A DNA stretch of 62,811 nucleotides from Thermoplasmatales archaeon (GTDB lineage: Archaea > Thermoplasmatota > E2 > DHVEG-1). Positions 14,712 to 48,220 of the stretch are shown in pieces (position 1 is the stretch's first letter; each line of letters starts with the position of its first letter). The translations under genes were made by a program, and so were the position numbers. Location: contig CP070712.1 of the NCBI GenBank assembly GCA_020350365.1, forward strand, positions 1-62,811. Reading direction: 5' to 3'. The notes beneath the pieces were generated by a model. It saw only the letters and a list, made by a program, of their open reading frames with translations. It was not told the origin of the DNA and did not search any database.

Positions 14712-15470
14712 ATGAACAAAAAAATAACAGGTACTTTTGTTTGTATACTTTTGATTGTAACTGCTTTATCAGCTGCAGGAGCAACAAATGTTCAAACTAT
14801 AAGATATCTAATTGAAAATAACAAATTAGAACCATGTACAATTACTCCGATTGATTCTAATGGTAATATTGCTATTAAAATCGTTGGTAAGATCACAAAT
14901 GTAAATGATCCAGATAATCTTCTAGGTGGTACGATTCTTATTGGAGATAGAATTACAGGGAAATATAATTATGATTCTGGAACACCGGATTCAGTTGCCG
15001 ATCCAAAGATAGGTGCATATGAATACACTACATCCAATTATGGAATTGAACTTAAAGCTGGTGGATTTGTCTTTAAAACAGATCCAAATGATGTTGACTA
15101 TTCAATTCATATTTGCGATGGTCATTATTTTTGTGATTATTGGGATGAGTATCGTATTTATAGTGATAGTAATTTGCAACTCTCAAATGGAATAGATGTA
15201 GATAGAATTATATGGTTTCTCACTGATTCAACAGGTAATGCTTTATCTAGTGATGCTTTACCAACTATTCCTCCGATTCTATCAGATTGGGATGAAAATA
15301 GATTAGCAATCATGGGTTATCATCCAATGTTCGTAATAAGGGCTACAGTTACAAGGGCCACCTTAAGCAGGGGTAATACAAGAGACGAGTACTTTAATAT
15401 GCAACCCAATTTATTTTGGCTGTTGGAACATTTCCCAATGCTGGAAAGACTACTGAATCTTATAAGATAA
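14712..15470 (+). CDS. Secreted hypothetical protein with a conserved C-terminal LLEHFPMLERLL motif
   Basis: Signal-like N-terminus MNKKITGTFVCILLIVTALSAAGA. GAGGGAGG SD. The C-terminal 30 aa are shared with the CDS at 44948..46609. Confidence 0.6.
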   Translation: MNKKITGTFVCILLIVTALSAAGATNVQTIRYLIENNKLEPCTITPIDSNGNIAIKIVGKITNVNDPDNLLGGTILIGDRITGKYNYDSGTPDSVADPKIGAYEYTTSNYGIELKAGGFVFKTDPNDVDYSIHICDGHYFCDYWDEYRIYSDSNLQLSNGIDVDRIIWFLTDSTGNALSSDALPTIPPILSDWDENRLAIMGYHPMFVIRATVTRATLSRGNTRDEYFNMQPNLFWLLEHFPMLERLLNLIR

Positions 15471-44947: not shown

Positions 44948-46609
44948 TCAGAAAACTTTGATTAATAATAGTATTCGCTCCAGTATTGGAAAATGCTCAA
45001 GCAACAATTGTAACAATGTATTAAATATTGCTCTGTTTCTCGGAATAATTACCTCGAATTCACTCCAATTGCTTTCAAGATCATATTCATCAATGGCTTT
45101 AGCTTTAATCAAATAAGTTCCTTCTTCATTCCAAGTATGATTCAATGTTACTACTTTACCTGATAAAAAGTGTTTAGTCTCTGTAATTTTTCCATCACCC
45201 CAATCTACATAATACTTAATAGTCTGATTATCTGGATCAGTTGAAACAAATGTGAATTCGTAATCAATACCTTGTCTTCCACTAGAAGGACCATCAATCT
45301 CTGGATCAGTTGGAGGTGGATTAATCCCTGTTGAAAAAGTCCATTCAGGACTTGAATTTGATGCACCATGATTATCCCAAGCAACAACCCTCCAATAAAA
45401 ATCCTCAAATATTGGTAGTTCACCATAAGGATCATAACATGTGTAAGTCTGATGAGAAGAAACAAGAGGTGGATCTGGATTTGGTCCAAAATAAACATCA
45501 TAGACTACGTTATCGCAAATATCAGGATCGCCTCCGGTCCAGCATAGTACCTCGGTTACTGGTACATTTGTATCTCCATCAAAAGGATGAGGGTTACTAG
45601 GAGAATATGGTGGATGGTTTAGCATTGTAACATTCAATTGAGATGACCAATTACTCTTCTCTTCTAATGTATTCTTTGCCATTACACTAATACTATATTC
45701 ATCAGGATTACTCCAATTATGAGCTATTACACAAGTTTCATTAGAATTGTACCAATCGGTCCATTCGTCAACTTCAAAATCACCATTCCAATCCCAGCCA
45801 TATGATACATTTAAACCATTTGGATCAGCAGTTGATGTTGAGTAATTATGATCAATACAAATATATCCAGAAGTATTGCCAGATGGTTTAGAGGGTACAT
45901 CTGGTGGATTATAATTTGTGGGGGTGTACCATACAATATATGCCTTATCACTATCAAATACATAAGCACCATCAAGTTCTCCATTTATATAGCTGCGTGG
46001 ATTAAAATGTGAATAATGAAACGCCTCATCTCCATCATTATCAAAATCTTCATACCATTCAATCCATAAACAATCTAAGTATAATATTTCAAATAAAATA
46101 ACTCCAGTACAGTTTTCACTGAGATTATTCCAAATTATTTCCCATTCATAATAAAACCCACATCTTCGATAAAAAGATTGAGCATCAGGATTGCTACAGT
46201 TCATTCCATTAATATGTAATTCAAAATTATTCAAATCCCATGTATGGTTAGTATTGTCTGTTGCAAGAAGTCTGAACTGGTTAATCGTTCCATTGAAATA
46301 TTCATTATTATATTCCCATTCAAGCTCTCTGGGGGGATATAAAAAATATACATAATCACAACCATAAGGATAACTACCAAAAGATTTTTGGGAGTTATCA
46401 ATTGTTTCATAATATTTCCCTGCTGGTTGAGAATTTAAAATATTATTTTCTTCAATATCAGTATTTAGAGAAATCGAATTATTTATCCTTTTATCTCCAT
46501 ATATAACTGGAGTGAAACTCATAGTAATAAAAAGAATTATTATCAACACTATCAGAGTTTTACAAAACAAACCTCTCTTTTTGTCCATTATTTTCTTTGC
46601 CTCCCTCAT
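44948..46609 (-). CDS. Secreted protein: Fn3-like and PKD-like (WGDG) domains plus a C-terminal LLEHFPILERIL motif
   Basis: Signal anchor LIVLIIILFITMSF. YYVDWGDGKITETK. C-terminus RNRAIFNTLLQLLLEHFPILERILLLIKVF. Confidence 0.6.
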   Translation of the reverse strand: MREAKKIMDKKRGLFCKTLIVLIIILFITMSFTPVIYGDKRINNSISLNTDIEENNILNSQPAGKYYETIDNSQKSFGSYPYGCDYVYFLYPPRELEWEYNNEYFNGTINQFRLLATDNTNHTWDLNNFELHINGMNCSNPDAQSFYRRCGFYYEWEIIWNNLSENCTGVILFEILYLDCLWIEWYEDFDNDGDEAFHYSHFNPRSYINGELDGAYVFDSDKAYIVWYTPTNYNPPDVPSKPSGNTSGYICIDHNYSTSTADPNGLNVSYGWDWNGDFEVDEWTDWYNSNETCVIAHNWSNPDEYSISVMAKNTLEEKSNWSSQLNVTMLNHPPYSPSNPHPFDGDTNVPVTEVLCWTGGDPDICDNVVYDVYFGPNPDPPLVSSHQTYTCYDPYGELPIFEDFYWRVVAWDNHGASNSSPEWTFSTGINPPPTDPEIDGPSSGRQGIDYEFTFVSTDPDNQTIKYYVDWGDGKITETKHFLSGKVVTLNHTWNEEGTYLIKAKAIDEYDLESNWSEFEVIIPRNRAIFNTLLQLLLEHFPILERILLLIKVF

Positions 46610-46771: not shown

Positions 46772-48220
46772 TTACCCACCAATTTTCACATGGACATAAA
46801 TCAATATAACAAATCCGCCTCGACTTTCTGTAACAAAAGATTCAGGTATATCGGCTGTTATAGTTAACTTAGTTGGCCCCAATCCAAATATAAAATTTGA
46901 ATTAATTGTAACATTTCCACCTGCAGGAATATTTGTTACACCAGTTGTTTCTTTGCCTATAAATGCACCTCCATCAAGAGTTATCTTCCAATTTACATCA
47001 ATTGCCTCTAAACCACCAATGTTATTAATTTGAGTACTGATCCTAAATAATCCACCCTTGATTGAGTCTATCTTAAGTTCTGCTAATCCAAGAATATCAA
47101 TTAAAAAAATATCAGACCATTCACTAGTCAAACCATAAATATCCTTTGCTTTTGCTTTGATTTCATATAGTCCTTTTTCAGACCATGTATGATTTATAGT
47201 TACCTCTTCACCATTAGAATATGGACCTACCCATCCACTAGTACTATTATCACCCCAATCAATGTAATAATATATATCATCCCAATTAGGATCAGAAGAA
47301 ACAACAGTAAAATTATAATCTTGGTTTATTACTCCAGTATCTGGACCTGAAATTGTTGGAGTTTCAGGAGGAAGAGGAATCCATGTGCAATTATTAGGAA
47401 TCATACAACATGTAACTTCGATTCCATAGCCAATGTTACCAATAAGAGTATATTCCCCCGTATCCAAATCTAATACATACAATTGTCCAGTAGTTGTATA
47501 TGCAGTTATATATAAGAGATTTGTTTCTCTGCAAAAGTCACCATCTGTTAAATAATGGATTGGGAAACCAATTGGATAAGGCGTTGCCTCACCTGTTTCT
47601 GTATCAATTGTGTAAAGGTTACCCAGTTGATCCCAACCATATAATACACCATCTCCATTAAAAGACATCCAAACCATAGACATAACATCACCTCCGAAAG
47701 GACCAATTTGTTCTTGTTCACCTGTAAATTGATCAATTTTATAGAGATGATTGTCTTCTGAACTACCATACATTTTATGATTTTTAGGGTTATATGCTAT
47801 ATCTAGGATATCTACGCCACCACCACCAATCAACCACATCTCACATGTAAAAATATCTAGACAATATAATATACCATTCTCGACTGTAAAATACCATATA
47901 CCGTCACAACCAAAAGTGTTACTACTAGATATAAAATTAGAGAGATTTAAACATAAATAGTTTACTTCTCCAGGATCAGCAAGAGGAAAAAAAATAATTC
48001 CTTCTGGACCAGGATATGCATTAAACCCATACATATATTCACAATCTTCAACAATTGATGGTTGCTTAAAAGCAATGGATTTATCGTCAATTAATATGCC
48101 ATTATTCGTGCTTTTCATTGCAGTTACATATGAAAATTTTTCCTCTATTATAAAACATCCATTAAGAACAAAAGCCAAAAATATAACAGCCAATACAATT
48201 ATTTTAATTTGATTTTTCAT
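46772..48220 (-). CDS. Secreted protein or lipoprotein: four LY.ID..TGE beta-propeller-like repeats, a PKD-like WGD domain and a CARDB-like C-terminal domain
   Basis: Signal with LNGC (lipobox-like). Repeats HLYKIDQFTGE, NLYTIDTETGE, QLYVLDLDTGE. YYYIDWGDNSTSGW. Confidence 0.6.
   Translation of the reverse strand: MKNQIKIIVLAVIFLAFVLNGCFIIEEKFSYVTAMKSTNNGILIDDKSIAFKQPSIVEDCEYMYGFNAYPGPEGIIFFPLADPGEVNYLCLNLSNFISSSNTFGCDGIWYFTVENGILYCLDIFTCEMWLIGGGGVDILDIAYNPKNHKMYGSSEDNHLYKIDQFTGEQEQIGPFGGDVMSMVWMSFNGDGVLYGWDQLGNLYTIDTETGEATPYPIGFPIHYLTDGDFCRETNLLYITAYTTTGQLYVLDLDTGEYTLIGNIGYGIEVTCCMIPNNCTWIPLPPETPTISGPDTGVINQDYNFTVVSSDPNWDDIYYYIDWGDNSTSGWVGPYSNGEEVTINHTWSEKGLYEIKAKAKDIYGLTSEWSDIFLIDILGLAELKIDSIKGGLFRISTQINNIGGLEAIDVNWKITLDGGAFIGKETTGVTNIPAGGNVTINSNFIFGLGPTKLTITADIPESFVTESRGGFVILIYVHVKIGG

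Follow-up and report, generated by a model that had tools for sequence, protein, structure and literature searches.

A conserved helical C-terminal tail on exported proteins of Marine Benthic Group D archaea

Two exported proteins with one type of tail

Few archaea are as common in sediments as Marine Benthic Group D, whose presumed way of life is to feed on detrital protein with the help of exported peptidases. The subject of this analysis is a short C-terminal tail on two exported proteins, which are encoded within the first 62,811 nucleotides of contig CP070712.1 from a Thermoplasmatales archaeon (this whole stretch of DNA is called the window). The window covers the first 62.8 kb of one contig of 1.82 Mb with 31% G+C, and the genome is 64% complete as judged by marker genes. 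The two open reading frames (ORFs) are found at 14712..15470 (+ strand) and 44948..46609 (- strand) and encode proteins of 252 and 553 amino acids, respectively. An original prediction, made from the sequence of the window, held that these otherwise unrelated secreted proteins end in a common cassette that has the pattern of a sorting, anchoring or processing signal.

The 252-amino-acid protein comprises a signal peptide, a β-rich cargo domain, a linker and the tail. The signal-peptide-like N-terminus, MNKKITGTFVCILLIVTALSAAGA (14712..14783), was recognised from the sequence and a hydrophobicity test; its cleavage site is putative. The cargo domain (residues 53-218; 14868..15365) is predicted by AlphaFold2 with pLDDT values of 94-98, and is followed by a flexible, basic junction, SRGNTRDEYFNMQ (residues 219-231; 15366..15404; pLDDT ~44), which is without the usual P-R-x-R. 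The tail itself (residues 232-252; 15405..15467) consists, according to AlphaFold2 and a profile match, of a helix PNLFWLLEH, an F-P kink and a second helix, MLERLLNLIR, directly before the stop codon (15468-15470). The ORF ends in ...SRGNTRDEYFNMQPNLFWLLEHFPMLERLLNLIR, and a profile built from tails alone matches it at 15396-15461 with a per-genome E of 9e-8. An identical protein is present in the protein collection searched, together with 95 homologues. There are zero Pfam or NCBIfam matches to this protein, and its cargo domain has no fold match in the PDB (best Foldseek E = 0.017, TM <0.3).

The 553-amino-acid protein has a signal anchor or peptide, an unnamed N-domain, an Ig-like region, a PKD domain and the tail; its gene was defined from the ORF list, the Pfam match to PKD and orthologues that bear the same tail. 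The C-terminal PKD domain (residues 434-522; 45044..45310, - strand; PF00801/PF18911) is modelled by AlphaFold2 with pLDDT 97-98. It is the only Pfam match in the protein (residues 434-520, 37.7 bits vs a gathering cut-off of 23.5), and it resembles the solved PKD domain 4XED (Foldseek TM 0.96; phmmer E = 2.6e-24). After it come the junction, P-R-N-R, and the tail, together PRNRAIFNTLLQLLLEHFPILERILLLIKVF (residues 523-553; 44951..45043, - strand; profile match and AlphaFold2), so that the ORF ends in ...IIPRNRAIFNTLLQLLLEHFPILERILLLIKVF. The tail-only profile matches at 44966-45043 with a per-genome E of 4e-9. No family was found when both full proteins were scanned against NCBIfam (E<=1), and an Rfam search of the window gave no matches.

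Comparison of the two proteins bears out much of the original prediction. Both ORFs do end in the tails quoted there, with the common core LLEHFP[MI]LER[LI]L.LI[RK]; both begin with a basic n-region and then a hydrophobic stretch; and the mature parts are indeed unlike, being a β-rich unnamed domain in one protein and an unnamed N-domain with PKD in the other.

The length of the tail is fixed at ~29-31 residues, counted from the Pro after the last strand of the preceding domain. Its parts are a junction (in this genome mostly P-R-x-[RK]), 3-4 polar residues, an aromatic and hydrophobic stretch of ~12 residues, an E-R-F-P kink, and an ending. There are two variants of this ending: the long variant reads N-A-F-P-I-L-R-x-L-L-G-L, and the short variant, to which both tails of the window belong, reads [LMI]-L-E-[RK]-L-L-x-L-I and aligns as the long variant minus four residues (without NAFP). 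A paralogue of the 252-amino-acid protein elsewhere in the genome (595034..595861) has the same cargo with the long variant; thus, the two variants are interchangeable.

From two independent alignments, AlphaFold2 predicted helix-kink-helix both times: behind the PKD domain of the 553-amino-acid protein, helices at residues 528-539 and 541-552 (pLDDT 74-88), and behind the cargo of the 252-amino-acid protein, helices at 232-240 and 242-251 (pLDDT 57-70). The helical hydrophobic moments of the two helices are 0.46 and 0.56 vs 0.30 and 0.37 for shuffled sequences, and are also above the value for β-periodicity. For all 78 tails tested, the best 19-residue window has an insertion energy of +5.2 to +13 kcal/mol, whereas a mean of -0.4 kcal/mol was obtained for the signal peptides of these proteins. 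After the kink there are 8-12 residues, and each tail has about 4 charged residues. As the best energies are never below +5 kcal/mol, the tail is no membrane-spanning anchor. Two features of exosortase-type signals are absent: in the 78 tails no transmembrane helix follows directly after the motif, and the tails end in ...LLGL, ...LLNLI(R) or ...LIKVF rather than in a terminal basic cluster. The earlier description of the tail as amphipathic with a Phe-Pro kink, and not a transmembrane-plus-basic tail, holds.

Carriers, cargo and distribution

The tail is not confined to the two proteins of the window. Across the whole genome, a motif-seeded profile that included the preceding strand found 118 ORFs with the tail <=25 residues from the stop codon, and the tail-only profile found 96 places at a per-genome E<=0.01. 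In a stricter, database-wide test of the tail-only profile (E<=1e-3), 78 ORFs of this genome were retained, 77 of them with the match <=12 residues from the stop and the last one with 13. Reversed-sequence decoys gave 0 matches. The cassette is common to about 100 proteins, not two, and chance is excluded; the original claim was correct in that the cassette is real, but too narrow in the number of its bearers. Within a crude gene set of ORFs >=150 amino acids, tail carriers number 109 of 1283 (~8%). The short signature, E-R-F-P(-N-A-F-P)-[IL]-L, stands on 78-118 ORFs with unrelated substrates, as do sorting signals of the exosortase/archaeosortase type. In addition, there are mini-ORFs that consist of the tail only (genome 171003..171122 (-) and 1037685..1037792 (+), e.g. 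MWTIWSTKRNIPRTRASTSYHLLLERFPLLERLLNLLR); these are probably remnants of broken tail genes.

The carriers are predominantly exported proteins. A signal-peptide-like N-terminus was found in 88/109 carriers vs 272/1144 other ORFs (odds ratio 13, p = 3e-32), and of the ORFs that begin in this way, roughly one in four bears the tail. Thus, recurrence at protein C-termini, on which the original prediction was to stand or fall, was found genome-wide: the motif is almost exclusively C-terminal and is enriched on proteins with signal peptides. A PKD domain precedes the tail in most carriers, but not in all: the tail of the 252-amino-acid protein has no PKD before it. For ten carriers chosen at random, Pfam assigned the cargo to M14 carboxypeptidase, C25 (gingipain-type) peptidase (two carriers), an S12/β-lactamase-type domain, an InhA-like MAM domain, a LanC-like domain, an arylsulfotransferase-like (ASST-like) propeller and FG-GAP repeats; two had no match. 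This sample fits the extracellular peptidase families that have been reported for Thermoprofundales/Marine Benthic Group D (PMC6461988).

Could the tail be a removable pro-segment, with no role in localisation, which keeps enzymes inactive or competent for folding until an Arg/Lys-specific cut is made at P-R-x-[RK]? A basic, dibasic-like junction is present in most copies in this genome and in 93 of the 150 best global matches, and the lineage encodes peptidases of the clostripain and gingipain types (PMC6461988). However, the junction differs between genera (PRxR, PKNK or P[FY]SYEPP), and as whole genera carry P-[FY]-S-Y-E-P-P instead, the basic junction is not a universal cleavage site. Moreover, the carriers have no catalytic activity in common, and some are not enzymes at all (FG-GAP repeats, PKD-only proteins), which makes a common inhibitory mechanism unlikely, and a flexible linker or a whole PKD domain lies between the tail and the catalytic domain. 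The pro-segment explanation is therefore considered very improbable.

A more trivial explanation would be that there is no signal at all and that the similarity reflects the conserved end of PKD-type domains or a repeated DNA element. In its favour, PKD is directly upstream of the tail in most carriers, and short variants have an odd choice of codons in common. At one position of the short variant, 13/24 Leu codons are CTG, which has a genome share of 4%, and Phe is written as TTC in 17/27 cases vs 18% in the genome. The short core is written in rare codons, e.g. TTC CCA ATG CTG GAA AGA CTG CT at 15432..15454 (+) of the window, and a near-identical string of rare codons is found in dozens of unrelated genes of three species of the genus (G000, G443, G444). 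This codon bias hints at spread of the cassette by recombination or at selection acting on the nucleotides themselves. However, recent copying of the cassette as the whole explanation was rejected: synonymous codons vary, and the last 84 nucleotides of unrelated genes have an identity of <=80%. Across tails, the Arg of E-R-F-P is written with 6 codons. Six Arg codons, together with this limit on DNA identity, imply that conservation acts at the protein level. Nor does the end of a PKD domain suffice, given the tail of the 252-amino-acid protein. The solved PKD domain 4XED comes from an M14-like peptidase that is encoded in the Marine Benthic Group D single-cell genome SCGC AB-540-F20, and the same module precedes the tail in the proteins described here; 4XED is complete without a tail, and its construct ends ...EVTMPK, at the junction (so that no solved structure contains the tail). 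Taking into consideration also the C-terminal placement on proteins with signal peptides, and the replacement of the tail by other C-terminal signals in relatives (below), the absence of a signal is hardly credible.

The tail is lineage-restricted, to Marine Benthic Group D (Thermoprofundales-type Thermoplasmatota). When 401 sampled genomes of the phylum were searched with the tail-only profile, it was found in 36/53 genomes of the window's family, in 0/4 of the sister family, and elsewhere in the sample as three weak matches (E about 5e-3). An exact DNA pattern for ERFPNAFP[IVM][LF], searched in one genome per species across 185,579 species, gave 108 stretches. The 80 of these that were listed are all from metagenome-assembled genomes (MAGs) labelled Thermoplasmatota or Thermoplasmatales, including SG8-52-3 and SM1-50, which are listed as Thermoprofundales (PMC6461988). 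The idea that Asgard archaea have this motif as well was rejected, as all 80 listed stretches are from Thermoplasmatota-type MAGs. A search of 1.84 billion representative proteins gave 554 matching clusters at E<=0.001, and in 146 of the best 150 the match lies <=5 residues from the C-terminus; among the remainder are a false positive with TPR repeats and what seems to be a fusion of two tail genes. Internal copies of the tail are very rare. One is in P0203, a metagenomic protein of 693 amino acids in which an internal tail is followed by a second cargo, PKD and a tail; the protein has the appearance of two neighbouring tail genes joined through loss of a stop codon.

The family boundary of the tail is soft. 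Two genomes of the family that were scored as negative (G084 and G183) bear divergent tails (...DKFPMIAKILMI and ...DQHPRLSSLLQQILSYSK), and one genome of the sister family (G458) has a clear tail of the short type; presence/absence profiling inside the family is unreliable for these reasons. The short variant is mainly that of the window's genus (g1), in which it has expanded: the four genomes belonging to g1 have 17, 9, 57 and 32 occurrences of its DNA pattern, vs 0-3 for a backwards control of the pattern, and the other 104 genomes of the family have 0-6.

Some proteins of the lineage end in other ways. In genomes G223 and G013, which have no match to the tail profile, PKD proteins end in a CARDB-like domain. 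Likewise, in the window, the neighbour of the 553-amino-acid protein is a secreted protein of 482 amino acids (46772..48220, - strand) with DUF4394/β-propeller and PKD, a CARDB-like β-structured end (...GGFVILIYVHVKIGG) and no tail. The CARDB-like domain may be an alternative C-terminal module.

Known C-terminal signals and candidate readers

The strongest functional clue as to what the tail may do is provided by natural swaps, i.e., homologous or similarly built proteins in which another C-terminal element takes its place. In the family of the 252-amino-acid cargo, 79 of 96 members (the query included) have the tail. Seven short homologues (~200 amino acids) have a PEP-CTERM-type end directly after the same last strand (...HVTSAVPEPATIMLVGIGALFLTKRR), and the start of this PEP-CTERM aligns with the junction of the 252-amino-acid protein; 4/5 of those scanned passed the cut-off of TIGR02595. 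These homologues are presumably bacterial: the sole organism label in the group, on a truncated relative, is Sedimentisphaerales. In the sister family, PGF-CTERM is found directly after PKD domains (...EEKKTPGFEFFSVVLAVMICFVVLRKRG), and metagenomic relatives of the 553-amino-acid protein have PGF-CTERM or transmembrane-plus-basic anchors at their end. Thus, the tail occupies the position of known sorting or anchoring signals. In some archaeal homologues the tail comes with a fragment of the last PKD strand, as though the whole cassette had been taken up in one piece.

The likeness to the archaeal and bacterial CTERM signals (PGF-CTERM with archaeosortase A, and PEP-, PEF-, VPXXXP-, Loki- and Heimdall-CTERM) is in arrangement: a short motif at the extreme C-terminus of proteins with signal peptides, on many unrelated substrates per genome, specific to a lineage, and in the place where PEP-CTERM or PGF-CTERM is otherwise found. 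In contrast to those signals, the tail has no membrane-spanning helix, no terminal basic cluster, no NCBIfam match and no apparent co-variation with an archaeosortase. When 50 tails were compared with NCBIfam release 20 at E<=10, no family was found, the CTERM models TIGR04126, TIGR02595 and those for VPXXXP-, PEF-, Loki- and Heimdall-CTERM included; a match to the lineage-specific archaeal CTERM families mentioned in the original prediction was thus not recovered. A Pfam scan of the same 50 tails (E<=10) was empty, a PDB sequence search gave chance fragments alone (FoxN3 'LEHFP' and ProQ 'ENFPNAF', E>0.06), and literature searches for the motif as a string gave unrelated papers alone, with no mention of the tail in the genome paper on Marine Benthic Group D.

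Two further systems are comparable. In Escherichia coli, PBP5 and PBP6 are held by in-plane anchors, and the tail shares with these an amphipathic, non-spanning α-helix (AlphaFold2 and hydrophobic moment) which ends a Sec-exported enzyme and does not look cleaved. Anchors of the PBP5/PBP6 type are single helices on few proteins, without a conserved motif, whereas the tail has two helices with a strongly conserved E-R-F-P(-N-A-F-P) kink between them and stands on ~100 proteins per genome. The C-terminal domain (CTD) of type IX secretion in Bacteroidota, with its enzyme PorU, is likewise a C-terminal module common to C25 peptidases and other secreted hydrolases. However, that CTD, which serves in surface attachment, is a β-sandwich of ~80 residues and needs an outer membrane; the tail has ~25 helical residues, is archaeal (Thermoplasmatota), and gave no TIGR04183-type match in the NCBIfam scans.

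What might read the tail? One explanation is that it is recognised by a processing enzyme dedicated to it. This enzyme would be unrelated to exosortases and archaeosortases, or would be a PorU-like C25 transpeptidase, and would cut the tail and join the cargo covalently to a lipid, a glycan or an S-layer component. In keeping with this are the sequence-specific motif at a constant distance from the C-terminus, the dozens to ~100 substrates per genome (as in the PEP-CTERM and PGF-CTERM families), the equivalence in position to sortase-type signals, the abundance of C25 peptidases in the cargo, and the consensus that differs by genus (9-57 occurrences of the short variant in g1 vs 0-6 elsewhere), as of a signal evolving with one reader. 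However, the junction is not conserved across genera, no transmembrane helix is available to hold the substrate beside an intramembrane enzyme, and no candidate enzyme was found. TIGR04178 and PF09721 were not found in this genome, which is 64% complete. In the family both are near-universal: TIGR04178 was found in 99/108 genomes, including all 3 congeners (which have archaeosortase A), and also in genomes without a detected tail; the main copy in the family is archaeosortase A (TIGR04125, 116-127 bits), which is typed as specific for PGF-CTERM. As nearly every genome examined in the family has one, with or without a detected tail, the presence of an archaeosortase is uninformative about the tail, and a link to archaeosortase, exosortase or rhombosortase, which the original prediction had put forward, was not seen. 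On balance, a dedicated processing enzyme is regarded as unlikely.

The general idea of a sorting, anchoring or processing signal has fared better than that link: C-terminal placement, signal peptides and the PEP-/PGF-CTERM position all point to such a signal.

PGF-CTERM proteins, the usual substrates of archaeosortase A, are recognised by TPGFE, a hydrophobic helix and RKR and are themselves present in this genome, as a class separate from the tail with about eight members. Their loci in this genome (G000) include 82125..83555, 249721..251130, 462704..463255, 1382282..1385947, 1399836..1400471, 1459260..1459766 and 1736168..1736683.

Other candidates were considered. An orphan paralogue of the archaeosortase family, with ~175 amino acids, passes TIGR04178 alone and belongs to no named subfamily; it was found at four loci, L140 (G442:C66), L141 (G187:C74), L142 (G451:C13) and L144 (G167:C9), and one congener has it. 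It was rejected as the reader of the tail, since it is missing from tail-rich closed genomes. One archaeal MAG of the family (L119; G125:C9:7719-11000) has a gene for a bacterial-type exosortase (XrtA-like; 8TM EpsH, TIGR02602, 148 bits), owing either to horizontal transfer or to contamination of the bin. Among known kinds of reader of a free C-terminus, no S41 peptidase was found, and the one PDZ protein found is ordinary.

A different kind of partner would be required if the tail were a module for docking or oligomerisation, the helices of which bundle with one another or with a scaffold to form multi-enzyme assemblies on the cell or close to it, by a logic like that of the cellulosome. Docking would be compatible with the broad hydrophobic face of the two short helices, which are amphipathic, with the presence of one module on many catalytically different enzymes, and with conserved polar positions that suggest protein-protein contacts, and some related metagenomic PKD proteins have cohesin or dockerin matches in Pfam. 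However, no scaffold protein was found whose repeats would match the tail. Dockerins, moreover, are much longer than the tail, which also lacks Ca-binding repeats. We regard docking into such assemblies as quite improbable.

A possible role at the cell surface

The tail is a conserved, helical, amphipathic and non-spanning module at the C-terminus of exported proteins, and is positionally equivalent to sortase-type signals. The role that we favour, as the likeliest, is that the tail holds secreted proteins at the cell surface, either at the membrane interface or on a conserved partner. The protein would first be exported by Sec. A flexible and often basic junction would then lead into the tail, in which an aromatic amphipathic helix is followed by the E-R-F-P(-N-A-F-P) kink and, at the very end of the protein, by another short amphipathic helix. 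Lying in the membrane interface or docked on a conserved surface partner, the tail would keep the enzyme at the surface; neither a membrane-spanning segment nor an archaeosortase would be needed for this. At junctions of the type P-R-x-[RK], later cleavage by Arg/Lys-specific exopeptidases of the cell itself could set the enzyme free. The tails in the window would represent a short allele (without NAFP) that has expanded in the window's genus.

Several points weigh against retention at the surface. Position and physical chemistry are what suggest it; the confidence of AlphaFold2 for the tail is moderate; and the basic junction of most copies would also fit a cleavage signal. In addition, a generic amphipathic anchor would need neither such conservation of polar and small residues (E, R, N, A and the terminal G-L) nor a fixed distance from the C-terminus; both point to a specific partner or enzyme, of which none was found. 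The kink, the conserved polar positions, the fixed distance and the genus-wide allele thus suggest that something reads the tail, which may be a dedicated processing enzyme or a docking partner.

A bolder and more tentative proposal, possible but rather doubtful, takes surface retention one step further: the tail may be the address label of a new archaeal pathway of surface attachment, in which a receptor or transpeptidase, neither sortase nor exosortase nor archaeosortase, reads the E-R-F-P kink and the free C-terminus and co-evolves with them genus by genus. The short allele would then have swept through the window's genus.

If about 100 exported proteins per genome, C25 and M14 peptidases among them, share one tag, then the tag would decide whether an enzyme is retained or diffuses away, a choice that lies at the heart of the economics of digestion outside the cell in sediment. 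The tail would be a C-terminal sorting or retention signal without either a membrane-spanning segment or a sortase-type enzyme, a kind that is absent from the curated libraries searched. For annotators, it offers a simple marker of the surface proteome of the lineage, and as a short peptide it is directly testable. Should the tail prove to belong to a new attachment pathway, it is this pathway that would organise most of the machinery with which one of the most abundant archaeal groups of marine sediments degrades protein outside the cell.

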